DNA from: a bacterium
GTDB lineage: Bacteria; Elusimicrobiota; Elusimicrobia; UBA1565; UBA9628
Direction: 5' to 3'
Length of the DNA stretch: 64,000 nt
Assembly: GCA_021846045.1 (NCBI GenBank)
Contig: JAJZCM010000001.1
Span: 54,457-118,456 of the forward strand
The position numbers were made by a program, and so were the translations under genes. Below the pieces are notes generated by a model. It was not told where the DNA came from. It was given only the letters and a program-made list of their open reading frames with translations, and ran no database searches. Shown here piece by piece: positions 21,726 to 44,402 of the stretch; within the stretch, counting starts at the first letter, position 1; each line of letters begins with the position of its first letter.

Positions 21726-24734
<3,009 letters not shown>

Positions 24735-26220: not shown

Positions 26221-27287
26221 GCTGGAATTTTTTTCAGCCTGTTGCGCCAGGAATCGGCGATCTCGCGAAAGATATCGTCAAGAGATTTTGCAATGTCCCA
26301 GTTGGGATAATGCGTCTTCATTTTTCTTAAATCGCTGTAATAGCAGATGTGGTCGCCGATACGGTTTTCATCGAGGTAGACGTATTTCTGTTTTTTTCCG
26401 CTCAAGGCCGAGACCTTTTCGAAGGCTTCAAGAATGGAGCAGGCGTTGTTTTTTCCGCCGCCGAGATTATAAACTTCTCCGCATCTGGGGGATTTTGCGA
26501 ACTCATGGATAAAGGCCGCGACGTCTTCCGAATGGATATTGTCTCGAACCTGCTTTCCTTTATACCCATAAACCTTGTATTCTCTTTCCTCAAGATTGCA
26601 CTTGATGAGATAGCTTAAAAAACCATGCAGTTCGACGCCCGAATGGTTGGGGCCCGTTAAGCATCCGCCTCTAAGGGCGCAGGTCGGCATGTTGAAATAT
26701 CGCCCATATTCTTGGACCATGACGTCCCCGGCTACTTTTGAGGCCCCGAAGATGGAATGCTTCGATTGGTCAATGGAAAACGTTTCCGGAATTCCGTTTT
26801 GATATATCGGATCATCATAATCCCAGCGCGTTTTCAATTCCTTCATTTTGATGGCGTTGGGGAGATCACCGTAAACTTTATTGGTCGACATGTGGATGAA
26901 GGGAGACTCGCGGCAGAAACGCCTGGCGGCTTCAAGCAAATTGAGCGTTCCGACCGCATTGGTGTCGAAATCATCAAAAGGAATTGCGGCGGCGCGGTCA
27001 TGGGAGGGTTGGGCGGCGGTATGGACGATGATGTCGGGCTTAATTTCCGATAAAAGCTTTAAGACGTTTGCCCGATCGCGGATATCAAGTTCGTGGTGGG
27101 TGAAGTCCGAGAGAGTTCCTTCAAGCCTTTTTTGATTCCAACGCGTGTCGCCCGAATGTCCAAAAAAAACCGCGCGTTGGTTGTTGTCCAAGCCTTCGAC
27201 CTTGAAACCGCGCTTCCCAAAATAAATGCAAACCTCGGAGCCGATTAAACCTGAGGAGCCGGTCACGAAGACCTTCTTTTTTTTCAT
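26217..27287 (-). CDS. NAD-dependent epimerase/dehydratase (extended SDR)
   Basis: [13 protein letters not shown] Rossmann motif. Overlaps the downstream SDR gene by 4 nt. Confidence 0.8.
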
Positions 27288-27330
27288 TACGATATCTAAC
27301 GATATTTACCCGCCTTTTTGCTAGGATTTC

Positions 27331-29901
27331 TTGATGCCGACCATGGTTAAAGATAAGATTGCCTCGCTTAAGAAATCTCTTGAGCTTCAGTCCTTTCTTC
27401 ATAAATCCATGATTTGGTGGCTTCCGCTTCTCTATTTTTTAATTTCTTCTCTTTTCTATTTACGGACATACGATTCCGCTCAGGTCAAGATTACCATCAT
27501 GCAAATGGGGGGATTGGCGCTTTTGACCCTGTGGGTCAGCCGCTTGATTGAATCGGGCGGCGCCGCGCTCAGCCGGGAAGACCTGGTTTGTCTGTCTCCG
27601 TTTTTGGCGTATCTTTTGGTCGGAATTCTTTCCTTCATCCATGCGCCTTACCGAATGGCGAGCGTGGACTTTTTCATCCGGCATTTTTTCTTTATGTCGG
27701 TGGCTCTTATCGTTATCTATGAATTCGACGCCGAAGCGTCAGAGCGTTTGACAAAAATACTCATTTGGACGGCCTGGGTGGCGGTCGGATACGGGTTTCT
27801 CCAGGTCATTGATACCCATTTCTTTCCTCCCGGAGTGGGGCACGGCATCGATCCTTTCATCTGGCGCATGGCCTTTGGCGATCGAGTGTTCTCAACTTAC
27901 GGTAATCCCAACTTTTTCGCGGACTTTTTAGTCATCATCTTCCCCATCTTGTTGTTGCGCTATCTCAAAGGGCGCCGGATGTCCTTGATTCCCTTGATGT
28001 TGATGCTCTTGGTTGATCTCTATTTTACGGGGACCAAGGGGGCTTGGGTGGGTTTTGGAATCGTGATTGTCGTTTTTTGCGTGATCGCCTTCATCTATTT
28101 TAAGGAAATTATTCAGCCGTATCGAAAGTATTTGATTGGGGCGGCAATTGCGGTCTTGCTACCGTTCTCATATATATTCATGAAGGATTTCACGACGCGC
28201 CTGGCTTCGGTTAATTTCCGCTTGTTTACCTGGGAAGCCACTTGGGAAATGATCATGACCCAGCCCTTTATCGGGACCGGCGTGGGGAGTTTTCCTCCGG
28301 TTTATCCTGCTTTTAGGCGCCCGCCGATTTTTCATATCGAGGCCAAGCATAATACGGAAACCGATCACGCGGAAGACGAGTATTTGGAAGAGTTGTTCGA
28401 CAATGGAATTCTGGGCTTTGGCGTATTTTTGTGGTTGATCATCAGCACCTTGGTCGTCGGTTTTAAGTCTCTAGGGCAGATGCTGGATGTTTCCCACTCA
28501 TCAAAAGATAAAAAAATTCCGCCGAGGGTCTTTGACCTTTTGGGCTACATGATCGCGTTTATCGGCATGTTGTGTCATAATTTTTTCGACGTGAGTCTCC
28601 GTTTTGTCTCTTCGGGGGTTTATTTGGGCCTTTTGCCTGGGATGATCGTAAATCTCTCCCGAGGAAAGGGCCTTTATGAATCGCATACTCTTCAGGAAAA
28701 AAATGTCAAACCGGGCGAAGCGGCTCCGGAGTCGTTTTGGAAAACCCTGTCTGAGTTCTTAATCTGGCCGGTTCGTTTGGCTGCCTGGGGCGGGCTTTTC
28801 TATATCGCCTTCTTGATTCTGACTCAATTTAACGCCTTGCAGGGCCCTATTGATCGCCTAACGATGGGAGGGGAAATTCTTCAGTGGTGGCTTTCTTGGG
28901 GAACCTTATTGGCTTGCGTTCTTGGATTGGGATTTGTTTTTTTTCGACTGATCCTTCTGTCGGAGAATCCCTTTGTCGGGGCGCTCATCTTGTCGGCCCT
29001 GCCGATTCTTTATACTTTTTGGGGTTATTTTAAAGCCGATATCCATCACAATATCGCCATCTATTTTTCAAAGGAACATGATTGGGATAAGGCCTTGTCC
29101 GAATATCAAACGGTGCATCGCCTCGATCCTAATTTTGCGATGGCGCTCTACTTCATGGGGAATGTCTTCAACGACCGGTTTAATATGCAAAAAACTTATA
29201 ATCCTTCCTGGGGAGACAAGAACAACGTTTCGCGGGATGATTATGAGCGCGCCTTGGACGCCTATAATGAAGTTCGCAAGCTTTCCCCCAATTACGTTCA
29301 GATGCATTATCAGGTGGGCGTCCTTCATCTTAAGCGCGCCCAGTGGGCGATAGACCACGGTCATCCCGAAGACGCGTTGACGTATTTTAACCGCGCGCTG
29401 ACCCGCTTTAAGCTTTATAAGACCATTGATCCCGTCTTTGGGCCCAATTTCCTGAGAATAGGCCAGGTCTATATGATGGAGCATCGCTATGCGGACGCGG
29501 TCAAGGCCTACCAAGAATATATTTTGGCGGATAAATGCGCGGTTGATCCTTCCTTGATCGTCAAGCCTTTCCTTAGAAAAACCATTCTCAGTTATCAAAC
29601 CTATGTTCATGTCCCCGGAATTCCCTATCCGGTTCATCGTCACCCCGCTCCCGACAAGCATGCGGAAGGGGCCGAGGTTTACACCAGTTTGGGGAACGCT
29701 TATTTTATGATGAATAATTTTGAGGCGGCCAAGGCCGCTTACCAGGAAGCTCTTCAATATGATCCAAATTTTGCCCAAGCTCAACATAACATAGCCGCCG
29801 TCTCGCTGCGGCTTAAAAATCCAAAAGGGAAGCCCTTGCTCCAAAATCCTTCAGAAGCTTCTCCACATTCTTCCGGCTATGAGATCATTCAGAAAAAGTA
29901 G
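27331..29901 (+). CDS. Wzy_C (O-antigen ligase / PglL-type oligosaccharyltransferase-like) polytopic membrane protein with C-terminal TPR domain
   Basis: More than 10 TM helices and the Wzy_C-like loop PFIGTGVGSFPPVYPAFR...HIEAKHNTETDHAEDEYLEELFDNGILG. The C-terminal ~350 aa are TPR-like. Confidence 0.65.
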   Translation: MMPTMVKDKIASLKKSLELQSFLHKSMIWWLPLLYFLISSLFYLRTYDSAQVKITIMQMGGLALLTLWVSRLIESGGAALSREDLVCLSPFLAYLLVGILSFIHAPYRMASVDFFIRHFFFMSVALIVIYEFDAEASERLTKILIWTAWVAVGYGFLQVIDTHFFPPGVGHGIDPFIWRMAFGDRVFSTYGNPNFFADFLVIIFPILLLRYLKGRRMSLIPLMLMLLVDLYFTGTKGAWVGFGIVIVVFCVIAFIYFKEIIQPYRKYLIGAAIAVLLPFSYIFMKDFTTRLASVNFRLFTWEATWEMIMTQPFIGTGVGSFPPVYPAFRRPPIFHIEAKHNTETDHAEDEYLEELFDNGILGFGVFLWLIISTLVVGFKSLGQMLDVSHSSKDKKIPPRVFDLLGYMIAFIGMLCHNFFDVSLRFVSSGVYLGLLPGMIVNLSRGKGLYESHTLQEKNVKPGEAAPESFWKTLSEFLIWPVRLAAWGGLFYIAFLILTQFNALQGPIDRLTMGGEILQWWLSWGTLLACVLGLGFVFFRLILLSENPFVGALILSALPILYTFWGYFKADIHHNIAIYFSKEHDWDKALSEYQTVHRLDPNFAMALYFMGNVFNDRFNMQKTYNPSWGDKNNVSRDDYERALDAYNEVRKLSPNYVQMHYQVGVLHLKRAQWAIDHGHPEDALTYFNRALTRFKLYKTIDPVFGPNFLRIGQVYMMEHRYADAVKAYQEYILADKCAVDPSLIVKPFLRKTILSYQTYVHVPGIPYPVHRHPAPDKHAEGAEVYTSLGNAYFMMNNFEAAKAAYQEALQYDPNFAQAQHNIAAVSLRLKNPKGKPLLQNPSEASPHSSGYEIIQKK

Positions 29902-31708
29902 CCGCAAATTTCTTCCCGCTCTTTTAATCGCCTTTGCGGCTTCTTTGACCGCCGCTGTCAGGGCGGCAACTTTTCCCGCGACCGACGAGGCCGTTTTTTC
30001 TCCGATGCAAGAGGAAATGGCGCGTTCGCTCAAAAATTTGAAAGAGGGAGATTTTGGGCCGCCTTATTTTATCGCTTACCGCATGGTCGTTGGCCGGGGA
30101 ATGGATATCTCGGCGTCTTTTGGCGGAGTTGTATCCGAAAACAAATATCATTCCCAGACTCTTTTCTCCGAAGTCAGATATGGGAATAAAAAAATGGATA
30201 ACACCTCGATTCAATATCAGGGGCTGAGCGCAGAGGCGCCGCTCAGCGGAAAAGAATTACGCGAGAATTTATGGATATTGACGGATAAGGCCTATAAGGA
30301 CGCGGTTGCCGGATATCTGGAAAAAAAAGCGAAACGGGTTACGGAATTTAGAGCGGAAAATCTGCCGGATTTTACCGATGAACCCTCGACGCGTTCCTAT
30401 GAGCCTCAAGAGGCTCCGAGTTTTGACGATGCCGCAGCCCGTTCCCTCGTTAAAAATTTAAGCCGGCTTTTGCGTTCCTATCCTTATATTTATCATGGGA
30501 CTGTGATTTTGCATTTAGGATGGTCGCGCCGGTACCTTTTGACCTCCGAGGGGACCAAGGTCTCGGGGCCGTATGAGAATTTGCCCAATTACCTCAGTAT
30601 TGACGTCAATTCTCGAGCGAAAGACGGGCTTAAGGTCAGCAATTACCGCGAGTGGGTTTTTAAAGATATGAAAAGTCTTCCGCCTCGGGAGAAACTAGCA
30701 AGAGCCGTGAAGCGCTTGGCGCTTGAGCTTAAAGAGTTGAGAGACGCCCCCTTAGAGACACCCGTCGCCGCTCCGACAATTTTGGATCCGGAAATGACGG
30801 GGGTCTTGTTTCATGAAGCGTTGGGACACAAGTTAGAGGGGGAGCGGCAAAGGGATCCCTTGCAAGGGCAAATATTTAAAGGCATGGTCGGCAAAAAAAT
30901 TATTCCAAGTTTCTTGTCAGTTATTGACGACCCAACGATGAGTTTTTTTAAAGGCGTTTCGCTTCACGGTCATTACCGGATTGATTCCGAAGGCGTCCCA
31001 TCTGAAAGAGTCGTTCTGGTTCGCAATGGTATTTTGGAAAATTTCCTGATGTCGAGATGGCCGCTTAAGGATTTTTCCCATTCAAACGGGCATGGGCGGG
31101 CTTCTTCAAGACTTCGTCCCTTGGGGCGCATGGCGAACTTGATGATTGAGGCTAAAAATCCTCTAAGTCCCGCCGCGCTTAAAAATAAATTACTGAAGCT
31201 GCTTCGCTCGGAACACAAGCCTTACGGCTTTAGGATTGTGGGCGCTTACGGCGGAGACAATCCAAGCGAGAGAACCCAGGCTCAGACGCTGCAGCTTCGG
31301 CCGCGTTTAGTTTACCGAATTTCGGCCAAGGACGGAAAAGAGACCTTGGTAAGAGGCGTTAAAATCGTCGTGACCCCCTTGGTCGTTTTAAACCGCATTT
31401 TGGCGGCTTCAAACGACGAGGCCCTCTCAAATCCTTACTTTTGCGGGGCGGAATCAGGATGGGCGCCGGTCGATCAAATCGCTCCGAGCGTTTTAGTTTC
31501 GGAGCTTGAGTTTGAGCGTCTGCCTGAAAATCGCTTAAAACCGCCGATTTTGCCCTCTCCGTTGACACATTTGCTAAAGCACGGAGAGGACGCTTGGCCT
31601 CCAGCCTTGATCGCGCCCTCTCCGTTGACACATTTGCTAAAGCACGGAGAGGACGCTTGGCCTCCAGCCTTGATCGCGCCTTCTCCGTTGACGCATGGAA
31701 AAAATTGA
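29879..31708 (+). CDS. secreted TldD-like metallopeptidase (HExxGH present)
   Basis: Signal peptide, then a TldD/PmbA fold pattern with HEALGHKLEGE. The C-terminus is extended by a 63-nt tandem duplication. Confidence 0.7.
   Translation: MRSFRKSSRKFLPALLIAFAASLTAAVRAATFPATDEAVFSPMQEEMARSLKNLKEGDFGPPYFIAYRMVVGRGMDISASFGGVVSENKYHSQTLFSEVRYGNKKMDNTSIQYQGLSAEAPLSGKELRENLWILTDKAYKDAVAGYLEKKAKRVTEFRAENLPDFTDEPSTRSYEPQEAPSFDDAAARSLVKNLSRLLRSYPYIYHGTVILHLGWSRRYLLTSEGTKVSGPYENLPNYLSIDVNSRAKDGLKVSNYREWVFKDMKSLPPREKLARAVKRLALELKELRDAPLETPVAAPTILDPEMTGVLFHEALGHKLEGERQRDPLQGQIFKGMVGKKIIPSFLSVIDDPTMSFFKGVSLHGHYRIDSEGVPSERVVLVRNGILENFLMSRWPLKDFSHSNGHGRASSRLRPLGRMANLMIEAKNPLSPAALKNKLLKLLRSEHKPYGFRIVGAYGGDNPSERTQAQTLQLRPRLVYRISAKDGKETLVRGVKIVVTPLVVLNRILAASNDEALSNPYFCGAESGWAPVDQIAPSVLVSELEFERLPENRLKPPILPSPLTHLLKHGEDAWPPALIAPSPLTHLLKHGEDAWPPALIAPSPLTHGKN
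31555..31698. repeat. 63-bp tandem duplication (2.3 copies), each unit holding an 8-bp-stem hairpin CTCTCCGT..ACGGAGAG
   Basis: Units 31555-31617 and 31618-31680 are identical, followed by a partial third unit. Encodes PSPLTHLLKHGEDAWPPALIA x2 at the C-terminus of the TldD-like protein. Confidence 0.85.
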
Positions 31709-31710
31709 CA

Positions 31711-31772
31711 GCTCCGGAATCCAGAAGATCGCTGCTCTGGACCCCGACTTTCATCGGGGTGACGTGAGTTGT
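31711..31772 (-). repeat. degenerate/partial copy of the double-hairpin repeat family
   Basis: CCCCGACTTTCATCGGGGTGACGTGAGTTGT (reverse orientation, stem with a C-to-T change) plus a CCGGAATCCAG remnant. Confidence 0.6.
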
Positions 31773-31773
31773 T

Positions 31774-32712
31774 ATGGAAAAAATTGACATGGAACAAGTC
31801 TCTTCTGTAACTTTGGAGGAATTGCCCTGCAATTTGTGCGGTTCCAGAGAGAGCGCCGTTTTATACCAGCGGCCTTATCTGACTCCGCATGACCAGAAAG
31901 TCGGAGCTTTTGCCGCGACGACCGATGAATTTCTCAATTACGGACGCATTGTTTCTTGCTTAAAATGCGGTTTGTGTTATACCAATCCCCGTCCCACGGC
32001 CGAGGCCATTCTTTCCGGCTATGGAAATTACGTGGATGAAAGCTATCTTTTGGAAAGCTCAAGCCGTTCAATTAACGCCCATTTGAGCCTTAATACCATT
32101 CGGCGGTTCACTTCAACGGGCAAGCTCCTTGAAGTCGGTTCTTCCGTCGGTTATTTTCTCAACGCGGCCCGAACCGATTTTGAAGTGACGGGCCTGGAGC
32201 CTTCCCGTTGGGCCGCCGAAGAGGCGCGGAGAAGATTTAAAGTCGAATGTTATCCCGAATCGCTCGAAAACCCAAGCAGCATCCAGGGAAGAAGTTTTGA
32301 TGTGGTCGCCATGTCGGATGTCGTTGAGCATCTTCTGGATCCGAAATCGGCGGTTCTCTCTTGTCGAAATTTTTTAAAACCTGGGGGGATTCTCTACCTT
32401 CTGACGCCCGATATCGGAAGCCTTTCGGCCAAGTTGATGCGCGGCTATTGGTGGGGGCTTCGTCCCGCCCATATTTATTATTTTTCAAGACAAACGATGA
32501 CGCAAATGCTCATGGGAAACGGGTTTGAAATATTGACCATTAAATCCTTCGGGCGAATTTTCTCCTATTCCTATTGGCTGAGCCGGTTGAAGAACTACCC
32601 AAAATCAGTTTTCCTTACGGTTGGCGGGGTAATCAAAGCCCTTGGCCTTGAAAATAAGCTGGTCTATATTGATACACGGGATTCAATGGAAATATGCGCG
32701 AGAAAAAGGTAA
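31774..32712 (+). CDS. class I SAM-dependent methyltransferase with N-terminal C4 zinc ribbon
   Basis: CNLCGS...CLKCGLC, then LEVGSSVGYF (motif I) and VVAMSDVVEHLLDP. Confidence 0.75.
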   Translation: MEKIDMEQVSSVTLEELPCNLCGSRESAVLYQRPYLTPHDQKVGAFAATTDEFLNYGRIVSCLKCGLCYTNPRPTAEAILSGYGNYVDESYLLESSSRSINAHLSLNTIRRFTSTGKLLEVGSSVGYFLNAARTDFEVTGLEPSRWAAEEARRRFKVECYPESLENPSSIQGRSFDVVAMSDVVEHLLDPKSAVLSCRNFLKPGGILYLLTPDIGSLSAKLMRGYWWGLRPAHIYYFSRQTMTQMLMGNGFEILTIKSFGRIFSYSYWLSRLKNYPKSVFLTVGGVIKALGLENKLVYIDTRDSMEICARKR

Positions 32713-34031
32713 ATCAGGCGTCTTTAAAAATTGCCTGCGTTCCTTGCTCGCAAAGCGAGAGTGTGCGCGGGCGTCTAGGGGGAAGATTTTGGGCACGCGC
32801 ATGCATTCTCTTTTTCGCATTCATCCTGAGAAGCGCCTACGCTTTTTACGCTTACAATCATACGTTTAAGGAATATAAGACCGAAGGCCAGCAGGTATCG
32901 GCGCTTGATCCGGATGGATACAATCGCCTGGGCGTCGCCTTAATTGAGCGCGGGGAACTTTCCCTGACGCCGGGCCGTCTTGAAACTTCCCGCGAGCCTT
33001 TTTATCCCCTTTTGTTGGCGGCGGTCCATTTCTTTTTCGGGCTTTCACCCATCGTGGGGATTACGCTGAATGTCTTGATCGGAGTTTTGTGTTGTTGGAT
33101 GACGTATGCGGTCACTCTCTCTGTTTTTCAAAATGAACGGGTGGGGCTTTTTTCTCTCTTGCTGGCGGCTTTTTTTCCGGAATGGATTTATTTTTCCGCG
33201 ACGATGTTTCGAGAGCCGTTGATCATCCTTTTAAGCTTGATTTGGATTCTCCTGTGGCAGAAATACTCTTCCTCGAGGAATGGGTGGGCTTATGCCGGGA
33301 TGGGAACGGCCTTTGGGCTTCTCTGTTTAACCCGTTCTCCTTTCATCCCCATAGGGGGCGCTTTTGCGCTCTTGGCCGCCTCAAAAATAAAACTTAAAGA
33401 TTGGGCTCGGACCATTGGAATTTTCCTTTTGTGCGCTTTTGTTCTGGAAGGAATATGGACGTACCGCAACGAGAGAATCTTAAAGAGATGGGTCGCGGGG
33501 GCGAGCATGGGGGGCTCGGTCATGTATTTATCCCTTCTCTATAATTACTCGCGTCCGGACATTCCCCTTGAATACCCGCTGGGTGCGGGAAAAGACCCCG
33601 TTATTTCTGTGGTCCTTGCCCGGCATTTGACCTTGGATCAAGCCGAGCCTATTTTTTATCAGTCCTGTCTTAAAATTCTCATCCATCACCCGCTGGTTTT
33701 TTGGGACGCTTTCATCCATAAGGTTATGAAACTCTGGCGGCCTTACCCCAATCCTGGATGGAAATATCCGCATTCACTTTTCGCTCTTTCATCTCTCTCT
33801 TTGATCGGGCTTTTCTCGGGTGGTGGAATCATGCTTCTAGGTCTTTGGGGAAGCGTTTTGGCGTGGAGAAATGGATATCCTATTGGATTTTTAATCCTGT
33901 TTCCGATGCTCATGTCGGTGGTTTACGGGCTTTTTTGGGCCGTGATGCGCTATCACACAACTTTAATGGTGGGGGTCATTCCTCAGGCGGCCTACGCCTT
34001 AGACGCGCTGCTCTCAAGAAAAGAATCATGA
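32694..34031 (+). CDS. GT-C membrane glycosyltransferase (ArnT/PMT / GT39-83-like)
   Basis: Polytopic protein with an N-terminal periplasmic loop GYNRLGVAL..REPFYPLLLA, typical of polyprenyl-phosphate-sugar-dependent GT-C enzymes. Start uncertain. Confidence 0.65.
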   Translation: MREKKVNQASLKIACVPCSQSESVRGRLGGRFWARACILFFAFILRSAYAFYAYNHTFKEYKTEGQQVSALDPDGYNRLGVALIERGELSLTPGRLETSREPFYPLLLAAVHFFFGLSPIVGITLNVLIGVLCCWMTYAVTLSVFQNERVGLFSLLLAAFFPEWIYFSATMFREPLIILLSLIWILLWQKYSSSRNGWAYAGMGTAFGLLCLTRSPFIPIGGAFALLAASKIKLKDWARTIGIFLLCAFVLEGIWTYRNERILKRWVAGASMGGSVMYLSLLYNYSRPDIPLEYPLGAGKDPVISVVLARHLTLDQAEPIFYQSCLKILIHHPLVFWDAFIHKVMKLWRPYPNPGWKYPHSLFALSSLSLIGLFSGGGIMLLGLWGSVLAWRNGYPIGFLILFPMLMSVVYGLFWAVMRYHTTLMVGVIPQAAYALDALLSRKES

Positions 34032-35674
34032 AAAAATTATTATGTCTGGGACTTTTAATTCTCCCTTTCTCTTCTTTCGCTCAAGATTCCACTATTGGCG
34101 TCGTGGTTTCTTCTGAAATAGCGAAGGCCATGACCCATTTGCAGGAGCCGGGATATCCGCTGCCGTATTTTATTTCCATCAATGTTTCGGATGTGGATAA
34201 TTGGGACTCGGAATGCGATATGGGCGCCCTGAATTGGTCCGAGCATTGGCGGGGGCGTTCGTTTTTTCCTGATGTTCGCGTCGGCAGCTATGCCTTGGAT
34301 AATCACCGCAATCCCGTGCCCCTTGGAGTCCTAGGCTCGTGGATTTCAATCGACGATAATCCGTTTGCTTTAAAACACGATCTTTGGTTGGGGCTTGATG
34401 AGTCCTACAAATCCGCTTCGGCCGGGTTTTTACGGAAAGAAGCCCAACGGGTCAGGGATGGAAAAAGGGAATATGACACCGACGACCTTTCCCATGAAAA
34501 ACCGATCATTAGCGCCGCTTCATTTCCCGCCGTTGGCGGCGGAACTTCTTTTTATCGCCAGATGAACCGCATTTGCCGCTCGGTCAGCGCCGTTTTTTCC
34601 CAGAAGCCTTCTTTAATTCAGGGGAATGTCTCGGTGGAACGAAGAAGCGTTCTTTCCCGTTTTTATAATTCCGAGGGAAGCCGAATTCACTCATCGAGGG
34701 ATATTTTTCATATCGAACTCAATATCGCGGCGGTTTCAAAAGACGGGATGAAGCTTTATTCAGAGCGTAATTTTATCTCCTTGTCAACCATGACTCTGCC
34801 GTCTTCCGATGTGATGGAAGCGCAAGGCAGGAAGATGTTGTCGGAAGTGGGAAAACTCTTGCTCGCTCCTTCCACTTCTCCCTTTAATGCTCCGGCTTTG
34901 ATTGACCCAACAGTTACTTCCGCCATTGTTTCATCTTTAGGCCTTAATTTTTCCGGTGAGTCCGCGCGCAATCCCTCCGGTGCCCAGATATTCAGAGGAA
35001 AAGTCGGCGACATTGTGTTTTCCAAGGATTTAACCCTGATTGACGATCCCATGGCGCGGTTTTTTAAGAAAACGCCTCTCGTCGGTTTTTATTCTTATGA
35101 TGAGGAAGGGGTGAAAGCCCAAAAGGTTCTTTTGGTTGAGGATGGGCGTCTTAAAAATTTCCTCCTGTCGCGTTATCCGGTCATTGGCTTTCCGCATTCC
35201 AACGGACATGCCAGAGGCGAGGCGGGGGCCTATCCGCGCGCGATGCCGAGCAATCTTTTCTTGGAAGCTAAACATGGGTATTCGCATGCTAAATTGATGA
35301 AGATTTTGCTCAAAGAGTTGAGAAAAGAAGGCAAGCCCTATGGGCTTTGGATTCGGAAAGTGCGGTCTTTTGTCCGAGAAAACAGCGCCGCGGGCGAAGA
35401 GTCTTTGCGGATCATGCCGGAACTGGTCTATCTCGTTGACGCCAAAACTGGAAAATTAACCTTGGTGCGGGGGTTGGATTTGGTGGGAACGCCTCTTGGA
35501 TTTCTCAATCATGTTTTGGGAGAGGGAAATGACATGACGGCGATCGGCCACCGGATTGGATGGGTGCCCATGTCGGTGGTCGCGCCAAGCTTGGTTTTGT
35601 CCCAGGTTGAACTCCAAAGATCGAAAGAACCTCCGGTGAATCCGCCCATTTTACCCTCGCCGCAGTCGCCTTGA
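34028..35674 (+). CDS. secreted PmbA/TldE-like protein (paralog of the 29879 gene, HExxGH absent)
   Basis: Signal peptide MKKLLCLGLLILPFSSFA. It is collinear with the TldD-like protein, including the shared C-terminal motif PPILPSP, but lacks the zinc-binding HExxxH. ATGA overlap with the upstream gene. Confidence 0.7.
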   Translation: MKKLLCLGLLILPFSSFAQDSTIGVVVSSEIAKAMTHLQEPGYPLPYFISINVSDVDNWDSECDMGALNWSEHWRGRSFFPDVRVGSYALDNHRNPVPLGVLGSWISIDDNPFALKHDLWLGLDESYKSASAGFLRKEAQRVRDGKREYDTDDLSHEKPIISAASFPAVGGGTSFYRQMNRICRSVSAVFSQKPSLIQGNVSVERRSVLSRFYNSEGSRIHSSRDIFHIELNIAAVSKDGMKLYSERNFISLSTMTLPSSDVMEAQGRKMLSEVGKLLLAPSTSPFNAPALIDPTVTSAIVSSLGLNFSGESARNPSGAQIFRGKVGDIVFSKDLTLIDDPMARFFKKTPLVGFYSYDEEGVKAQKVLLVEDGRLKNFLLSRYPVIGFPHSNGHARGEAGAYPRAMPSNLFLEAKHGYSHAKLMKILLKELRKEGKPYGLWIRKVRSFVRENSAAGEESLRIMPELVYLVDAKTGKLTLVRGLDLVGTPLGFLNHVLGEGNDMTAIGHRIGWVPMSVVAPSLVLSQVELQRSKEPPVNPPILPSPQSP

Positions 35675-35720
35675 CAGAAAAGAATGTCTCTGTTACACTA
35701 ACTTAGGACACGGAGGAATC

Positions 35721-35939
35721 GTGGAAAAACCTCAGGAATTGCTTTTTGTTATAGAAGAATCGCCTGGAGGAGGCTATATCGCCTCGGCCCTTGGCCCAAG
35801 CATTGTTACTGAAGCCGATGATTGGGAGTCGCTTAAAAAACGGATATCCGATGCGGTTTTGTGCCATTTTGAAGATCCGGCATTTCGCCCTCGCATCATT
35901 CGGCTTCATGCGGTCAAGGATGAGTTTTTGGCTTTATGA
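35721..35939 (+). CDS. hicB: HicB-family antitoxin (UPF0150-like, short form)
   Basis: LLFVIEESPGGGYIASALGPSIVTEADDWESLKKRISDAVLCHFED matches the HicB N-terminal RNase-H-like fold pattern. 4-nt overlap with the downstream hicA. Confidence 0.55.
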   Translation: MEKPQELLFVIEESPGGGYIASALGPSIVTEADDWESLKKRISDAVLCHFEDPAFRPRIIRLHAVKDEFLAL

Positions 35940-36178
35940 GGCTTCCCCGCGATATTGGGGGAGAGGAACTGGCCCGCCTGCTTATTCGCTATGGTTACAT
36001 GGTGACCCGCCAAACTGGCAGCCATATTCGACTAACAACTCAGCGAGAGGGAGAGCATCATCTGACGATTCCAGCGCATACTGATCTTCGTTTAGGGACG
36101 CTTAATTCTATCCTCCAAGAAGTGTCTCGGCATATCAAGAAAGATAAGAACGACTTAATTCAAGAATTATGGCCGTGA
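35936..36178 (+). CDS. hicA: HicA-family mRNA interferase toxin
   Basis: GYMVTRQTGSHIRLT...HLTIPAH.DLRLGTLNSILQ fits the YcfA/HicA dsRBD-like motif set (GSH, P.H, GTL..IL). Confidence 0.65.
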   Translation: MRLPRDIGGEELARLLIRYGYMVTRQTGSHIRLTTQREGEHHLTIPAHTDLRLGTLNSILQEVSRHIKKDKNDLIQELWP

Positions 36179-36199
36179 CTGGGGAGTGAGGGTGTTTTA

Positions 36200-37222
36200 A
36201 TGTCGGATTCTCCGTTTTTTTCAATTGTCTTACCCACCTACAATCGCGCCGTGATGTTGCCGACGGCACTTGAAACTCTCCGTCGCCAAACATTTACTGA
36301 TTTTGAAGTTTTAATTGTTGATGATGGATCCACCGATAATACTCCTGAAATTGTTAAGACTTGGACGCAGGACTCGCGCTTCAAATATAAATTCTTAGAT
36401 CATGTCGGCAATATGCCATGCCGGAATAAAGCCCTTGAAATGGCTTCGGGGATATGGATTACCAATATTGATTCCGATGATCTTTGGCTGCCCAATAGGC
36501 TTGAGAAATTTGCGGCATATATTCAGCGGCATCCACAGGTGGGATTTATTTTCTCGAATGGGTATCTTTACCGGTTTGGGCGTATTATTGGGGTGGATTT
36601 TGATCCGTTGAAATCGCTTCCCGAGGGGAAAATGGCGGGGCATTATGCCGTGGGAAGATCGGGATTGCCGTATCTGACCACAAATCTCGCGATTCCCAGG
36701 GCTCTTTATGACAAATATGGCCATTATCGCAAAGATATGGTGATTCTCGACAATGAACTCTATGCGCGGATGCTCGCCGATGGAGTTGAAGTGGGCATTA
36801 TCTATGAGCCTTTGGCTATTCGCAGAATACATGGAGGCCAGGTTACTCATCAGTGGCTTGGCTCCTATCCGGAATCAATTGAAGCCCTAAAAGCCGCAAA
36901 GCCTTCTGCCGAGGTTTTTGATCAGGAGAAACTCAATCTTGTCCTAGAATTTTCTGATTACCTATGGCGTAATTTAGAGGGGAAAAAAGCGCGCTGTTTT
37001 ATGCTGGAAGAATTGGGAGAGAAGGCCCCAAAAACACGGCTTTATTTTCTTACTTTTATCCCGGCTCCCCTGCTGTTTTTAGCTAAAAAATTACGGAGAC
37101 TGTATTTAATCCTCATCCATTCCCCGATTTTTGCGAGCCCTGAGACCAAAAAAATATACCAGTTTCTTAATCCCTTGTTGATCAGCGAGGGAATTCGCGA
37201 GAGAGATAGTTGGTCGAGTTGA
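36200..37222 (+). CDS. GT2 glycosyltransferase
   Basis: FSIVLPTYNRAVML, VLIVDDGSTD, NIDSDD (DXD). Confidence 0.8.
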   Translation: MSDSPFFSIVLPTYNRAVMLPTALETLRRQTFTDFEVLIVDDGSTDNTPEIVKTWTQDSRFKYKFLDHVGNMPCRNKALEMASGIWITNIDSDDLWLPNRLEKFAAYIQRHPQVGFIFSNGYLYRFGRIIGVDFDPLKSLPEGKMAGHYAVGRSGLPYLTTNLAIPRALYDKYGHYRKDMVILDNELYARMLADGVEVGIIYEPLAIRRIHGGQVTHQWLGSYPESIEALKAAKPSAEVFDQEKLNLVLEFSDYLWRNLEGKKARCFMLEELGEKAPKTRLYFLTFIPAPLLFLAKKLRRLYLILIHSPIFASPETKKIYQFLNPLLISEGIRERDSWSS

Positions 37223-37233
37223 AGATCGTCGAT

Positions 37234-38784
37234 TCAATCAGCGGTGGCAATGCTTTTATTAAAAGAAACTCTCAAAATATTGGATGGTAAAATGGTTTGT
37301 TGCCCCATCGAGTGCTCGTATCTTTGAGGGGTTCGGCTTGGATTGAAGGGAATTTTTAGTTTTTGACGAACATCGGATTCCGTTTGATTGCGGAGCTTCA
37401 CTAAATCCTCAGCCGAGACGTAATCAGTATAAACAAAGGATTGATACCCGCCGTTGGGATCGCCTTTGTAGTAATCGGCGACTTCGGTGTAGTCCACTTC
37501 CTGGGAAAAAAGGCGATCTCCATTTTTCTTGTAAGTATAAACCCATAGATTCCTCTTGCCGGGGTCCTGAACTGCATGATCGTAATAGGGAGTTCCTGGG
37601 TAAGTGGTGATAATAGTCACGTCAAAATCATCGGGTTTGACTTCCAAAAGCCAGTCGCGCGTGTCTCGAATAGTCTCTGGCGATTCCCCTGGATGTCCGA
37701 TGGACATTAAGGCTTTTATCTTAAGTCCATGTCTGCGGGCGATTTCAACGCAGCGGGTATTTTCTTCCCGCGCGGCTTTTTTGTTGATATTTTGAAGAAT
37801 TCGGGGAGACCCAGATTCAAAACCGGTCAATATCCAACGAAAACCCGCTTTCCGCATCGCCTCGGCTTGTTCATCAGTAAAAAGCTGAGACTTAATAAAG
37901 CCCCTGAGGCGAAATTCAACGCCCAATTGGTCTTGGAGAGAACATATTTCACGCATCAGTTCGACCATTTTGGGATTGACGTTGAGTTCGTCATCATAGA
38001 GCATAAATCCGCGTACCCCGTAATCGCGGAACATTTGCTTCATTTCAAGAACGATGTTCTCGGTCGTCCGCATTCGTATTCGGCGCAGCATCGGAGATTC
38101 TCGCCCTCCGCAAAATCCGCATTCGAAAGGGCATCCAAGCTGCGCGATTAAAGACAACGCCCGCAGGCCTTCTATCTCATAGCGGTAGCTGTCAACGTCC
38201 ACAAGGCGTCTGGCGGGAAACGGCAATTCCGTTAGGCGCGCATTATTTAAAAAGAGCGGAGAATGCGGATCGTCGGCGTCGACGAGTTTTGGGGGATTCT
38301 CGCTTAAGGCGGAAAAAATCGCCTCCTCACCGTCTCCAGCAACTAAGATATCATAAAGTTCGGCCAGCTTTTGATAGGCGAGAGTCGCACGGCCCTCTAT
38401 CCCGCGACGTTTCTCTCCTTTGTAAGCGGCATTGACTAGAGTGATATGCGGTCCGCCGAGAATAATGCGCGCGCGTGGAGATTGGGCGCGTAAAACGCGC
38501 AGTATTTTGGTCGAAGCCGGGAGTTGTGGAGTTGTGGCGGTCAGTCCGAAAAATCGGGCTTTTGACGATGAGGCATGAAGGGCCGCGACTTCTTCATAGT
38601 TTTCGACTCCGGACAAGTCCAGCATTTCGACCGCATATCCCTCGCGCTCTAAAACGGCCGCGACCTTGAGTATGCCTAAAGACATAAAAACGCGCTCATC
38701 CAGCAAGAATAAAGAGGGCGGGACAATGAGGCAAACAGTTTGTCTTTCTCGACTATTGCGGGTGGAAGTCGCTCCGGCAAGCAT
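37234..38784 (-). CDS. B12-binding domain radical SAM protein (class B)
   Basis: N-terminal cobalamin-binding Rossmann region (CLIVPPSLF...GILKVAAVLEREGY) and the radical-SAM cluster motif CPFECGFCGG. Start chosen at an internal Met; the longest ORF runs to 38874. Confidence 0.75.
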   Translation of the reverse strand: MLAGATSTRNSRERQTVCLIVPPSLFLLDERVFMSLGILKVAAVLEREGYAVEMLDLSGVENYEEVAALHASSSKARFFGLTATTPQLPASTKILRVLRAQSPRARIILGGPHITLVNAAYKGEKRRGIEGRATLAYQKLAELYDILVAGDGEEAIFSALSENPPKLVDADDPHSPLFLNNARLTELPFPARRLVDVDSYRYEIEGLRALSLIAQLGCPFECGFCGGRESPMLRRIRMRTTENIVLEMKQMFRDYGVRGFMLYDDELNVNPKMVELMREICSLQDQLGVEFRLRGFIKSQLFTDEQAEAMRKAGFRWILTGFESGSPRILQNINKKAAREENTRCVEIARRHGLKIKALMSIGHPGESPETIRDTRDWLLEVKPDDFDVTIITTYPGTPYYDHAVQDPGKRNLWVYTYKKNGDRLFSQEVDYTEVADYYKGDPNGGYQSFVYTDYVSAEDLVKLRNQTESDVRQKLKIPFNPSRTPQRYEHSMGQQTILPSNILRVSFNKSIATAD

Positions 38785-38872
38785 AAGCGAATTATAGTAA
38801 AATGGAAATCCCTTTATGCTGCTACGAGAACGATTCCCAAGTCCGAGAGAACGCAAGAACAGGGCCGTTTTC

Positions 38873-39487
38873 ATGGACAGAGACGGTGTGATTATTAAAG
38901 AAGTAAATTACCTCTCGCGCCTTGAGGATATGAAAATTATCTCCGGAGTTGCGGATTCGATCGCGAAACTGAGAAAAGCGGGCTTTAAGATGATAGTTAT
39001 CAGCAATCAGTCGGCCGTCGCTCGCGGACGCCTGAGCCTTTTTAAACTTCATAAAATTACGCGCGTTTTACTCCAAATGATTCGGGAAAAAAATTCCAAG
39101 GCTTGCATTGACGCCGTTTACTATTGTCCGCATCATCCTGATTTCGGCAAACCCTGCTCTTGCCGGAAACCCGGGATTGGGCTTCTCCTTAAAGCGCAAA
39201 AAAAATTCAACATTGATTTGAAATCCTCCTATTTTGTCGGAGACTCAAGCGCCGATATCCTAACGGCTCGGCGGGCAGGATGCGTTCCTCTGCTGGTGAA
39301 AACGGGGAAAGGTGGAAAAGACGGACTCTACAAGGCAAAGCCGAAAAAAATATTTAAAAACCTTTCCGAGGCTTCCCGCTGGATTTTAACTGCTCAGGTT
39401 CGTCATTCCGGCGAAAGCCGGAATCCAGTTGGAAACCTGGACCCCGACTTTCGTCGGGGTGACGTGAGTAGTTGCGCTGGATTTTAA
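38873..39487 (+). CDS. gmhB: D-glycero-D-manno-heptose 1,7-bisphosphate phosphatase (HAD-IIIA)
   Basis: FMDRDGVI (DxD), ISNQS, YYCPHHPDFGKPCSCRKP (Zn-binding Cys cluster), FVGDSSAD. The last ~28 codons and the stop codon come from the repeat element (AQVRHSGESRNP...). Confidence 0.8.
   Translation: MDRDGVIIKEVNYLSRLEDMKIISGVADSIAKLRKAGFKMIVISNQSAVARGRLSLFKLHKITRVLLQMIREKNSKACIDAVYYCPHHPDFGKPCSCRKPGIGLLLKAQKKFNIDLKSSYFVGDSSADILTARRAGCVPLLVKTGKGGKDGLYKAKPKKIFKNLSEASRWILTAQVRHSGESRNPVGNLDPDFRRGDVSSCAGF
39392..39475 (-). repeat. double-hairpin dispersed repeat copy (reverse orientation)
   Basis: GTTCGTCATTCCGGCGAAAGCCGGAATCC...TGGACCCCGACTTTCGTCGGGGTGACGTGAGTAGTTGC. Confidence 0.85.
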
Positions 39488-39491
39488 AACA

Positions 39492-40190
39492 ATGAAAGTA
39501 TTGATTGTCGCCGGCGGATTTGGAACCAGGATGCGTCCCTTGTCCCAGGATATTCCAAAGCCGATGCTCAAAATTTTTGAAAAGCCGATTTTGGAGCATC
39601 TCATTATTTGGCTTCAATCTTCTGGCTTTAAAGAGATTACTCTTTGTTTGGGGCACAAGGCGGATGTCGTGTCCAATTATTTCGGAAAGGGAGAGACATG
39701 GGGGGTCAATCTTGAGTATTATATCGAAACAGAACCGCGTGGAACGGCCGGATGCGTGCGGGATACGTGCGGTAATTTAACAGAGGACGTTCTGGTTGTT
39801 TATGGTGATTTGTTTATTTCGATGAATTTGAAACCGTTTTTGGACTTTCATGCCGAAAACTCCGGTTCTGCCGCGAGCTTGATTCTCTTTAAGACCGATC
39901 ATCCTCGGGATTCCGACTTAGTGCGTCTTGAAAACAGCCAAATTAAAAATTTTTACCGCGACCCAGAGGCTGAAGATTCGAAACATTTGGCTTGCGCGGC
40001 CGTCTGGGCGTTGAGAAAGCCGATTCTGGACTTGATTCCAAAAGACCGGCCTTCGGATTTTGGACGGGATATTTTCCCTCAAGCGCTTAAGAGAGGGCTC
40101 AGTTTGTCCGGATACGTCACGGCTGAAATCCTGGCGGATTTGGGAACCCCTGAGCGTTTTTCCGCTTTTGAAAAAAGGCGTTTGCAATGA
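39492..40190 (+). CDS. hddC: sugar-1-phosphate nucleotidyltransferase, D-glycero-alpha-D-manno-heptose 1-phosphate guanylyltransferase-like
   Basis: LIVAGGFGTRMRPLS..PKPM is an NTP_transferase signature. Its position between gmhB and hddA supports the HddC assignment. Confidence 0.65.
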   Translation: MKVLIVAGGFGTRMRPLSQDIPKPMLKIFEKPILEHLIIWLQSSGFKEITLCLGHKADVVSNYFGKGETWGVNLEYYIETEPRGTAGCVRDTCGNLTEDVLVVYGDLFISMNLKPFLDFHAENSGSAASLILFKTDHPRDSDLVRLENSQIKNFYRDPEAEDSKHLACAAVWALRKPILDLIPKDRPSDFGRDIFPQALKRGLSLSGYVTAEILADLGTPERFSAFEKRRLQ

Positions 40191-41158
40191 TCATTTCTCG
40201 CACGCCTTTTAGAATCAGCCTTGCCGGAGGCGGCACCGATCTTAAGGAGTTTTACCGGCATGAACACGGCGCCGTATTATCTTTTGCCATCGATAAGTAT
40301 ATGTATATCACCGTCAATCACTATTTTGATGAATCGGTGTTTTTAAAGTATTCAAAAAGCGAGTTGGTTGATTCCGCCTCTCGAATACGCCACCCTCTAT
40401 GGAGAGAGTGCTTGATTCAAAGCGGTCTCCATTGCGGAATAGAAATGACTTCGATGGCCGATATTCCGGGCGGCACGGGACTGGGTTCTTCCTCAAGCTT
40501 TACCGTTGGCACGCTCCATGCCTTATCGGCTTTTAAGGGCGAGTTTCGCACCGCTGAAGAGTTGGCCCGCGGCGCCTGTCGTATTGAAATTGAACGCCTG
40601 AAAGATCCCATCGGAAAGCAAGATCAATACATCGCCGCTTATGGCGGCTTTCAATTCATCGAGTTTCTGCCGGATGAAAGCGTGAAAGTTAATCCTGTCA
40701 TTCTTAGCGAGAAAACGCGCGAAGCCCTTTTTAGCCGGATGATTTTATTTTATACGGGAATGCGTCGCAGGGCGGGAACGATACTTAAAAAAGCTCGCAG
40801 CAATTTCTCGGAAAACATGGAGAGCCTCAGGCGCTTAAGAGAATTAGCCTATTGGTCCAAGGAAAGAATCCAAAAAGGAGACGTGGATTCAATCGGCCCG
40901 GTTTTGCGTGAAAGTTGGGAAATTAAAAAGTCCTTGACCGGGGAAGTGACTAACGAGGTGATTGATCAAATTTATAGAAGAGCTCTCAAGGCTGGAGCCG
41001 TGGGCGGGAAAATTCTCGGAGCGGGCGGTGGGGGGTTTCTACTTCTTTTTTGTCCTCCGTCTAAGCGTTCATCCGTTATCGGTAACCTTAAAAACTGGCG
41101 GCATATCCCATTTAAATTTGAACCGGAGGGGTCGAAAATAATCCATGTCAGCCGCTAA
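40187..41158 (+). CDS. hddA: D-glycero-alpha-D-manno-heptose 7-phosphate kinase (GHMP kinase)
   Basis: RTPFRISLAGGGTDL and the GHMP motif PGGTGLGSSSSF. ATGA overlap with hddC. Confidence 0.8.
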   Translation: MIISRTPFRISLAGGGTDLKEFYRHEHGAVLSFAIDKYMYITVNHYFDESVFLKYSKSELVDSASRIRHPLWRECLIQSGLHCGIEMTSMADIPGGTGLGSSSSFTVGTLHALSAFKGEFRTAEELARGACRIEIERLKDPIGKQDQYIAAYGGFQFIEFLPDESVKVNPVILSEKTREALFSRMILFYTGMRRRAGTILKKARSNFSENMESLRRLRELAYWSKERIQKGDVDSIGPVLRESWEIKKSLTGEVTNEVIDQIYRRALKAGAVGGKILGAGGGGFLLLFCPPSKRSSVIGNLKNWRHIPFKFEPEGSKIIHVSR

Positions 41159-41771
41159 AAAGATAACTTCCACCCGTCCGGGGGCTTTCCATCTCATTGG
41201 CCCGGGCGGCTTGCCGGCCGAGGATTTTGCCGCTTGGTATCGGACGGAGTCTTTTCGGCAGTGGCAAAGCCTCGATTTAAAGGCAATTTCCAGTCTTGCG
41301 AAAACAATCGAGAAGGCGGAAAAAGAAAATCGGGAAATTTTCGTCATGGGAAACGGGGGATCGGCCGCGACGGCTTCTCATTGGGCGACGGATTTTTCCA
41401 AGACGGCGTATGTTGCGGGACATCCAATGATTCGCTGTCGTTGCCTGTCTGAAAACATCCCTTATTTGACGGCGATCGGCAACGACCTATCTTTCGACGA
41501 CTTTTTTAGCCGTCAGTTGGAAAACATTTTAAACCCCGGGGACCTGGTTATTTTAATATCGGGAAGCGGAAATTCAAAGAACCTCATCAAGGCTTGCCGA
41601 TTGGCGAAGAAGAGAAAAGCCCAGACCGCTGGAATCCTGGGCTTTGATGGCGGGCGTTTAAAAAACATGGTTGATTTAAAGATTATCGTGCCTTCCAATC
41701 AATACGGCGTCATTGAGGATATGCACATGGCCATTGGGCACATTTTGACGTTTTATTTAAAACAGAGATAA
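41145..41771 (+). CDS. gmhA: phosphoheptose (sedoheptulose-7-phosphate) isomerase, SIS domain
   Basis: VMGNGGSAATASHWATDF, ILISGSGNS and a C-terminal HMAIGHIL. Confidence 0.8.
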   Translation: MSAAKKITSTRPGAFHLIGPGGLPAEDFAAWYRTESFRQWQSLDLKAISSLAKTIEKAEKENREIFVMGNGGSAATASHWATDFSKTAYVAGHPMIRCRCLSENIPYLTAIGNDLSFDDFFSRQLENILNPGDLVILISGSGNSKNLIKACRLAKKRKAQTAGILGFDGGRLKNMVDLKIIVPSNQYGVIEDMHMAIGHILTFYLKQR

Positions 41772-43535: not shown

Positions 43536-44402
43536 ATGGCTTTCTTCTTCTCTTCAAACGACAACAGCAAAGACCAGCTCAAATCAGGTCAACCGTGGCC
43601 CGAAGAACTGGGAGTGCCTCATTGGGAATATCCTTACTTTTTATCTCAGGCAAAGGTCAAAGGAATCATCTTGAAGTTTTCAATCGTCATCCCCATTTAT
43701 AACGAAGCCGCCACGGCCAAAACTCTTATTGAAAAAGTCATTACCGCCGAGGTCCTCGGGCTCGAAAAAGAAATCATCATCGTAGAAGGCGCGTCCACGG
43801 ACGGAACGCGAGAAATCGCGCGTGAGTTTGAAAAAACGCCCGGCGTTCGCGTTATGTATGAAGAGCGTCCTTCCGGTAAAGGCAATGCCGTCAAAAAAGG
43901 GCTTTCCGCCGTTACCGGAGATTATATTCTAATTCAAGACGGAGATTTGGAATACGATGTCGCCGATTACCCGAAACTTCTTAAGCCTCTAATTGAAAAT
44001 CAAGCCGACGTTGTTTATGGATCTCGCGTTTTGCGCTCGCCGCAAAGCTGGCAGTTCAGGCGTTTTTCCGGTTTTGAGAGATTTTACGGTTTTTTCGTCA
44101 ATTTCGGCGGCGTTCTCTTTACCAATCTTTTTAATTTTCTCTATGGAACGCATTTAAGCGATGTAGCGACTATGTTTAAGATTTTTAAGGCCGATGATTT
44201 GCGAAGGATAAGCCTTAAGAGTTGCGGCTTCGACTACGATTGGGAAATTTCCGCCAAACTGGCAAAGAATAAGTCCACTCGATTTAAAGAAATTCCTGTT
44301 TTTTATAGAGCGCGTTCCCGCGCAGAGGGGAAGAAAATCAGGTTTTGGAGAGATGGGCTTAGCGTGTTTATCGCGATTTTGCGCTACCGATTTTCTGATT
44401 GA
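43536..44402 (+). CDS. GT2 glycosyltransferase, DPM1/ArnC-like
   Basis: FSIVIPIYNEAATA, IIIVEGASTDGT, ILIQDGDLEYD. The ATG at 43536 adds an atypical 47-aa N-terminus; the real start is probably the TTG near 43672, preceded by AAAGGA. Confidence 0.75.
   Translation: MAFFFSSNDNSKDQLKSGQPWPEELGVPHWEYPYFLSQAKVKGIILKFSIVIPIYNEAATAKTLIEKVITAEVLGLEKEIIIVEGASTDGTREIAREFEKTPGVRVMYEERPSGKGNAVKKGLSAVTGDYILIQDGDLEYDVADYPKLLKPLIENQADVVYGSRVLRSPQSWQFRRFSGFERFYGFFVNFGGVLFTNLFNFLYGTHLSDVATMFKIFKADDLRRISLKSCGFDYDWEISAKLAKNKSTRFKEIPVFYRARSRAEGKKIRFWRDGLSVFIAILRYRFSD

Follow-up and report, generated by a model that had tools for sequence, protein, structure and literature searches.

A predicted exported TldD-like zinc peptidase and its degenerate paralog, encoded by neighboring genes in an envelope-glycan locus of an Elusimicrobia bacterium

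The subject of this work is a pair of genes, A and B, in a 64,000-nt stretch of Elusimicrobia DNA (assembly GCA_021846045.1, contig JAJZCM010000001.1, positions 54,457 to 118,456), which at its full length is referred to here as the window. The pair spans positions 29879-35674 of the window, with both genes on the + strand. Gene A (29879-31708, 609 aa) encodes a predicted exported TldD-like zinc metallopeptidase, the putative catalytic subunit, and gene B (34028-35674, 548 aa) encodes a predicted exported, catalytically degenerate TldD-like paralog in what would be a TldE-like partner role. They bracket a methyltransferase gene (MT; 31774-32712, +) and a gene for a polytopic membrane glycosyltransferase of the GT-C type (32694-34031, +), and are preceded by a gene for a Wzy_C-TPR membrane protein (27331-29901, +, 856 aa). 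The original prediction for this locus, made from the sequence alone, regarded A and B as an active/inactive pair and took overlapping stop and start codons as a sign that the four genes from A to B form a functional module. Such overlaps are found between Wzy_C-TPR and A (23 nt), MT and GT-C (19 nt), and GT-C and B (4 nt), but that part of the prediction does not extend to A and MT, which lie 65-80 nt apart and are separated by an inserted repeat element. The full stop-to-stop open reading frame (ORF) that contains B runs from 33758 to 35674, and the real start of B is the ATG at 34028, which forms an ATGA overlap with the GT-C stop codon; read from this position B has 548 aa, the same length as database proteins P0121 and P0122.

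In a BLASTP comparison the two proteins align collinearly from end to end, with 32% identity across 545 columns (E = 6e-86); they are full-length paralogs, which confirms the proposed paralogy. Both are matched by the Pfam model PF19289 (PmbA_TldD_3rd) with scores of 91.7 bits for A and 89.3 bits for B (cut-off 22), and neither is matched by the Pfam models for the first and second TldD/PmbA domains. A phmmer search of PDB sequences pairs A with Escherichia coli TldD (5nj5_A, E = 5e-14) and aligns “lfHEALGHkleg” of A with “llHEAVGHgleg” and “fCGAESG” with “vCGKEGQ” of TldD; a MAFFT alignment likewise places the Cys of E. coli TldD opposite C522 of A. The HEALGH sequence of A (30812-30829, +; H312, E313, and H317) corresponds in this alignment to the HExxxH zinc-binding/catalytic motif, HEAVGH in E. 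coli TldD, and Cys522 (31442-31444, +) corresponds to the third zinc ligand, the Cys in “vCGKEG”. All four residues, C522 as part of CGAESG, are invariant across 54 A orthologs. By alignment, A retains all three TldD residues predicted to bind zinc (H312, H317, and C522) together with the putative catalytic E313. The original prediction, which had noticed HEALGH alone and depended on the other TldD ligands being present in A, is strengthened by C522. At the HExxxH columns B reads “SSLGLNFSGE”, with SSLGLN opposite residues 312-317 of A, and has no Cys at the C522 column; both the motif and the Cys are absent from B and from 46 of 46 aligned B orthologs. HEALGH is thus kept only in A, and the division into an active and an inactive member known from TldD/TldE holds for this pair and its orthologs as well. 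A Pro-rich C-terminal motif, PPILPSP (31541-31561, +, in A), closes each TldD-like module of this secreted subfamily; it is common to both C termini, as first noted, and is conserved in the orthologs of both proteins.

The structural models extend the homology to the whole of both chains. AlphaFold2 models were obtained with mean confidence values (pLDDT) of 86.7 for A and 89.9 for B. In Foldseek searches the top match of A is 5njf_A (E = 6e-31, template modeling (TM) score 0.79), and those of B are E. coli TldD and TldE. Each model returns 16 significant PDB matches, every one a TldD/PmbA-family chain with E. coli TldD first, and the alignments cover ≈520-540 columns with target-normalized TM scores of 0.72-0.80. 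Because these matches run full length, the N-terminal halves of A and B, which lack a Pfam match, also appear TldD-like, and on the basis of the models each protein is predicted to carry the complete TldD/PmbA multidomain fold. A lies far below the NCBIfam equivalog cut-offs (54.5 versus 513 bits for NF008006; 70.1 versus 635 bits for NF040952) and is therefore a distant subfamily member and not a TldD equivalog.

Beyond the motif, A ends in a tail encoded by a 63-bp tandem repeat (31552-31696, +; 2.3 copies, Tandem Repeats Finder score 276, 97% matches), which specifies a 21-aa repeat that is predicted to be disordered (pLDDT < 50 for residues 572-609) and reads ...APSPLTHLLKHGEDAWPPALI.... 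Database protein P0001 (locus L052), from a different assembly, has exactly one copy fewer and is otherwise 100% identical. A diverged version of the repeat is found in relatives that are 81-84% identical (P0002 and the A proteins of L001 and L002), and none is found in L003-L005.

B had been called PmbA-like, and as a statement of descent this does not hold up. B fails to match the NCBIfam PmbA model NF008268 and gives weak matches to TldD models, a profile built from 46 B orthologs scores TldD above PmbA (31.3 versus 24.7 bits), and over trimmed alignment columns B is 18% identical to TldE versus 32% to A (A-TldD, 22%; TldD-TldE, 18%). A neighbor-joining quartet groups (TldD,TldE) against (A,B) in 111 of 200 bootstraps, versus 14 of 200 for (A,TldD) against (B,TldE), with the E. 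coli sequences on long branches. Since A and B are 32% identical to one another versus 18% for TldD and TldE, and B is nearer to TldD than to TldE, a duplication and inactivation separate from that of TldE probably gave rise to the inactive partner; this placement is weakly supported and may be influenced by long-branch effects. An assignment of B as a TldE ortholog is disfavored by the quartet, but the 55% bootstrap value for an independent origin is a lean and not a result. B itself is best described, from its alignment and predicted structure, as a TldD-like paralog that appears to have lost the zinc site and kept the fold. In roughly half of the B orthologs PPILPPP is followed by a further domain of ≈110 aa, which ends in a conserved “YRARYxDGWPDEGPR” and has no recorded Pfam match (L006, L009, L013, L017, L018, L020, L029-L031, L041, and others; proteins P0129, P0143, and P0150); B of the window lacks this domain.

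Signal peptides were judged by inspection and hydropathy. The N terminus of A reads MRSFRKSSRKFLPALLIAFAASLTAAVRA, followed by ATF, with a hydrophobic segment at residues 11-29; the signal-peptide-like region comprises residues 1-29 (29879-29965, +) and ends in AAVRA before an Ala. That of B (34028-34081, +) reads MKKLLCLGLLILPFSSFA, followed by QDS, and also contains a hydrophobic segment. Each N terminus has a basic n-region, a hydrophobic core, and a small-x-small cleavage motif. For comparison we used 43 loci taken from GTDB species representatives, all of them Elusimicrobia; a signal-like N terminus is found in essentially all A and B orthologs from these 43 genomes (≈40 for A) and in the fused relatives described below. 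In four database proteins in which a GT-C domain is fused to A (GT-C::A), the polytopic GT-C domain lies upstream, and the signal-like segment of A forms the connecting hydrophobic stretch. These features agree with the predicted export of both proteins; the Sec route is the most likely one, and the periplasm is most likely where A and B would act. B was also considered as a lipoprotein and rejected, as Cys6 is too near the N terminus and is not conserved.

Several observations tie A and B together as one unit. Among the 43 loci the two genes are almost always neighbors, with no gene between them in most cases, and the stop codon of A overlaps the start codon of B by 1-28 nt in ≈24 of 36 informative loci. 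When A served as query in an exhaustive HMMER search, it retrieved 5030 clusters at E ≤ 0.001 and 965 clusters (50% identity) at E ≤ 1e-30, and the best matches include dozens of ≈1100-aa proteins that match A twice, with 30-38% identity to A. Behind a single signal peptide, the A-like module of these fusions shows HEILGHRLEG and CGAESG and leads through a “KPPILPSPFHD” junction into a B-like module that lacks the zinc motif and ends in the same Pro-rich motif. They are found in Eisenbacteria, Planctomycetota, Gemmatimonadota, and Deltaproteobacteria and are annotated only as “metallopeptidase TldD-related protein”. The fusion of the two modules in a fixed order argues strongly, if indirectly, that A and B form one two-module unit, like TldD/TldE in the crystal structure, and from the overlapping genes and the natural fusions we infer a heterodimer with a closed chamber. 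In the three fusion loci that we examined, L049, L050, and L051 (proteins P0416, P0444, and P0458), the neighbors are sulfatases and a DUF5107-TPR protein; a TonB-dependent receptor; and a P-II protein and an ammonium transporter. A further protein, P0324 (875 aa), joins a pseudouridine-synthase-like N terminus to a signal-like segment and a TldD-like module and is probably an artifact of gene calling or assembly.

The Wzy_C-TPR gene upstream of A encodes a multi-pass membrane protein with an O-antigen-ligase-like Wzy_C domain (PF04932, 63.9 bits versus a cut-off of 31.7) and a C-terminal TPR domain matched by several TPR families; it has ≈13 hydrophobic segments and a 75-residue acidic loop at residues 285-359. 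Judged by these matches, it fits the Wzy_C family, which comprises WaaL ligases, some Wzy polymerases, and PglL O-oligosaccharyltransferases. This gene, which the original prediction had not included in its module, precedes A in most loci, and in ≈20 loci with a mere ≈50% protein identity among them it runs 20-29 nt into A; the widely conserved core of the locus is Wzy_C-TPR followed by A and then B, with overlapping frames. MT is a class I S-adenosylmethionine (SAM) methyltransferase (Methyltransf_23, 79.6 bits) with an N-terminal four-Cys CxxC...CxxC arrangement and no hydrophobic segment and is predicted to be cytoplasmic. GT-C is PMT_2/ArnT-like with a marginal score (PF13231, 28.3 bits versus a cut-off of 26.1) and has at least eight hydrophobic segments; by sequence it gives no meaningful match to solved structures. 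Its homology to the GT-C domain that is joined to the A ortholog P0050 extends along its full length (27% identity, E = 3e-20).

The proposed four-gene module survives only in part. The order A-MT-GT-C-B is limited to the close clade of the window, comprising L001-L005 (75-90% identity) and L052, where MT is called as 307 aa; the bracketing of MT and GT-C by A and B reflects their insertion, in this lineage, into an A-B pair that is older. Partial orders are found elsewhere, with A-GT-C-B in L007, L011, and L017 and A-MT-B in L012, and both inserted genes recur as neighbors of the pair: homologs of MT lie near A and B in L012, L015, L017, L044, and L048, and some genomes carry GT-C as a fusion with A. 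A small GT2 gene is likewise a recurrent neighbor, and all three kinds of gene are found beside the pair in distant Elusimicrobia. The gene order is GT2, GT-C, Wzy_C-TPR, A, B in L047; MT, GT-C, an unannotated protein, an epimerase, GT2, A, B in L048; and GT2, GT2, MT, Wzy_C-TPR, the GT-C::A fusion, and the next gene in L044. In one distant locus the first genes encode a DegT-type aminotransferase and a GT2-PMT_2 fusion. The association of the pair with periplasm-acting glycosylation genes in Elusimicrobia is real, and a functional link of MT and GT-C with A and B is plausible, though not as a fixed module.

Taken together, these data lead us to propose, with a probability of roughly 0.55, that A and B constitute an exported two-module zinc peptidase of the TldD/TldE type that trims or clears an unstructured polypeptide tied to envelope glycosylation. 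In E. coli TldD/E, only TldD binds metal and TldE completes the chamber, an arrangement described by a “pencil sharpener” model, and the enzyme is tolerant of sequence in unfolded peptides (PMC10885120). By analogy, A would supply the sole active site (H312, E313, H317, and C522), and B, the inactivated paralog, would complete the closed chamber as TldE does for TldD. As in that enzyme, a narrow channel would admit only unfolded linear chains, which would be cut stepwise until a bulky modification blocked entry; this chamber would work in the periplasm, unlike that of E. coli TldD/E. The coupling of the pair in an operon with genes for Wzy_C-TPR, GT2, GT-C, MT, and sugar-nucleotide enzymes suggests a glycosylation-linked polypeptide as the substrate. 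Such an enzyme might shorten a glycosylated acceptor up to the point where the glycan halts it, or it might remove acceptor that has not been glycosylated.

A number of observations speak against this proposal or narrow it. No candidate substrate gene was found. Some A orthologs carry RR in the n-region, which would also be compatible with Tat export of A, and a crude hydropathy analysis of Wzy_C-TPR assigned its TPR domain to neither side of the membrane. In the three loci from other phyla, the fused relatives sit outside glycan loci, and a glycan-related substrate is for this reason at best Elusimicrobia-specific; the ancestral role of this branch of the family may be general periplasmic peptide breakdown. 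The title of a review listed in PMC10885120 (Vobruba et al. 2022) speaks of N-deacetylases in the TldD/TldE family, and peptide-bond hydrolysis by A and B is hence not guaranteed.

The main rival explanation takes up this last point and holds that A and B are a periplasmic amidohydrolase (N-deacetylase or deformylase) whose substrate would be an amino sugar within a glycan that is lipid-linked or still growing. ArnD in the ArnC/ArnD/ArnT pathway and the periplasmic deacetylases of exopolysaccharide operons would be its models. The embedding of the pair in, and its translational coupling to, glycan-assembly genes (small GT2, GT-C, and Wzy_C), the fusion of GT-C to A in some genomes, and the aminotransferase and GT2-PMT_2 fusion at the start of the distant locus would all suit such an enzyme, as would the N-deacetylases named in the title cited above. 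A further parallel is offered by LmbIH/LmbQ and CcbIH/CcbQ of the lincosamide clusters, divergent PmbA_TldD pairs in a sugar-handling pathway that are assigned to the N-deacetylase branch of the family, LmbIH/LmbQ lying in an amino-sugar antibiotic cluster (PMC4351081); these are cytoplasmic enzymes of actinobacterial secondary metabolism and are likened to A and B by setting and not by sequence. An amidohydrolase nevertheless appears unlikely, given that the ligands of A and the residues flanking them are the same as in the peptidase TldD, that no aminotransferase or N-acetyltransferase is seen in the island of the window, and that the fused relatives in other phyla lie away from glycan genes. 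The same relatives, which occur in many phyla and in unrelated settings, once beside a TonB-dependent receptor, suit instead an oligopeptidase that would degrade nutrient or turnover peptides generally in the periplasm, with the position of A and B in a glycan operon reflecting co-expression or historical accident. The sequence tolerance of E. coli TldD/E toward unfolded peptides (PMC10885120) and the lack of a substrate gene in the operon are equally compatible with this explanation, which we consider improbable: the overlap of Wzy_C-TPR with A persists across Elusimicrobia lineages at only ≈50% identity, GT-C::A gene fusions exist, and in one clade MT and GT-C have entered the exact space that separates A from B while overlapping frames were kept, a combination that is hard to explain without selection for co-function.

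Very improbable, in our judgment, is that A and B are themselves the glycan acceptors of Wzy_C-TPR, which would then be an O-oligosaccharyltransferase whose TPR domain binds the tail, with the Ser of PPILPSP (Ser560) as the attachment site. O-oligosaccharyltransferases of the PglL type have the Wzy_C domain in common with WaaL, and often the genes of their targets lie beside their own (PMC3643930). The Pro/Ser motif is an invariant feature of both C-terminal ends, and in the clade of the window the tail that bears it has been expanded by tandem duplication, with APSPL tripled in the repeat tail. Against this, many B orthologs read PPP in place of PSP, no feature marks the Wzy_C protein of the window as an O-oligosaccharyltransferase over a ligase or polymerase, and hydropathy does not place its TPR domain. 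The motif looks structural because it is also present at the junction between the modules of the fusions and in relatives without a Wzy_C neighbor, and the idea that PPILPSP is a sorting or glycosylation signal has been downgraded on the same grounds.

Returning to the proposed exported peptidase, its closest characterized counterpart is E. coli TldD/TldE (PmbA; MEROPS M103; PDB 5NJ5 and related entries), which resembles A and B in the full-length fold of both subunits, in an HExxxH plus Cys zinc site confined to one subunit, and in the pairing of an active with a degenerate subunit. The E. coli proteins are cytoplasmic, whereas A and B both have signal-peptide-like N termini; A and B are also ≈70-100 residues longer, score far below the NCBIfam equivalog cut-offs, and are more similar to one another (32% versus 18% identity), and their genes are adjacent and overlapping in a glycan operon, while tldD and tldE of E. 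coli lie ≈1 Mb apart. The ≈1100-aa tandem TldD-related proteins resemble A and B in the signal peptide, the order of modules, and the PPILPSP-type motif that closes each module; they differ in carrying both modules in one chain in place of two genes and in their examined contexts, which are not glycan loci. No function for these tandem proteins is reported in the literature searched. Three-component periplasmic glycosylation systems (a GtrB/ArnC-type GT2 with a GT-C enzyme) and Wzy_C enzymes share domain types and the expected periplasmic site of action with the genes that flank A and B. We know of no three-component glycosylation or Wzy_C system that is described with a TldD/TldE-type hydrolase component, and our literature searches were likewise empty; searches for secreted, periplasmic, or Tat-exported TldD/TldE, or for a link of TldD/TldE to O-antigen ligase or to Elusimicrobia, also returned nothing relevant.

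The fold, the chemistry, and the active/inactive pairing of the TldD/TldE family are known already, and its natural substrates are largely obscure beyond microcin B17, CcdA, and a few peptides that ribosomes make and that are modified after translation (RiPPs), even though the family is present in most bacteria (PMC10885120). In the literature searched, export, the probable independent origin of an inactive partner, single-chain fusions, and a link to glycosylation genes are not described. The exported TldD-like branch is large and occurs in several phyla, with its two modules either encoded by overlapping genes or fused in tandem in a single chain, and its tight link to glycosylation genes in Elusimicrobia, including the GT-C fusion, gives a testable handle on the role of TldD/TldE outside the cytoplasm. 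If the glycan connection is true, A and B represent a new type of enzyme in bacterial envelope glycan or glycoprotein assembly; if it is false, the branch is still an unstudied class of periplasmic peptidase. A more far-reaching version, which we regard as doubtful, makes the exported chamber an integral part of periplasmic glycosylation, either by glycan-gated trimming of a glycosylated polypeptide or as an amidase or N-deacetylase through which a lipid-linked or nascent glycan is threaded, with an inactive partner independent of TldE. Were it true, it would add a role not described for the TldD/TldE family and a second origin of the active/inactive pair.

The wider surroundings of the pair form an envelope-glycan island. 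It contains a GT2 gene at 23955, two minus-strand epimerase/dehydratase genes, and the Wzy_C-TPR, A, MT, GT-C, and B genes, followed downstream of B by genes for a GT2, a B12-binding radical-SAM enzyme, a HAD phosphatase, a nucleotidyltransferase, a GHMP kinase, and a SIS isomerase; an epimerase gene, two more GT2 genes, and two more PMT_2 GT-C genes are also included. The four consecutive genes from the HAD phosphatase to the SIS isomerase (38816-41771) are presumably a set like that of the GDP-glycero-manno-heptose pathway, and many Elusimicrobia loci also have the HAD and nucleotidyltransferase genes close to A and B. The radical-SAM gene (37234-38874, −) has copies with 70-73% identity in L026 (4329-5852) and L033 (4491-5963), where they adjoin a GT-C gene a short way upstream of the Wzy_C-TPR, A, and B genes. 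The two further PMT_2 GT-C genes are divergent and lie ≈9 kb downstream (44384-45667, −; 45850-47670, +). The original prediction had suggested a search for a nearby precursor peptide gene. None is present among the small ORFs near the pair, where the only small genes are a HicB/HicA pair, and with no precursor or modification genes and with neighbors devoted to envelope glycan synthesis, processing of the RiPP or microcin type was rejected.

The HicB-like gene (35721-35939) and hicA (35936-36178; Pfam HicA_toxin), a toxin-antitoxin pair, are inserted between B and the downstream GT2 gene and have no counterpart in L001-L004. A scan of 27000-36400 for promoters and terminators gave the same counts as shuffled sequence; its only good promoter-like site is at 35671-35699, just upstream of hicB.

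The element between A and MT is a 79-bp insertion (31711-31789, +) that is flanked by a 16-nt direct repeat, ATGGAAAAAATTGACA, at 31695-31710 and 31774-31789, a duplication that disrupts neither reading frame. The insertion is missing in L001 and L004, in which the stop codon of A abuts the start of MT. Because of this 16-nt duplication, the true start of MT is probably at 31789 rather than at 31774. The insertion carries one copy (31740-31763) of a repetitive extragenic palindrome (REP)-like sequence, GACCCCGACTTTC(A/G)TCGGGGTGAC, which occurs seven times in the window versus zero expected from shuffles, the other copies being at 7264-7287, 39440-39463, 45693-45716, 45901-45924, 54717-54740, and 57306-57329. 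At least the copy between A and MT and that at 45693-45716, in the spacer of the divergent GT-C genes, fall between called ORFs, and the copy at 45901-45924 lies inside the start of the called ORF at 45850-47670.

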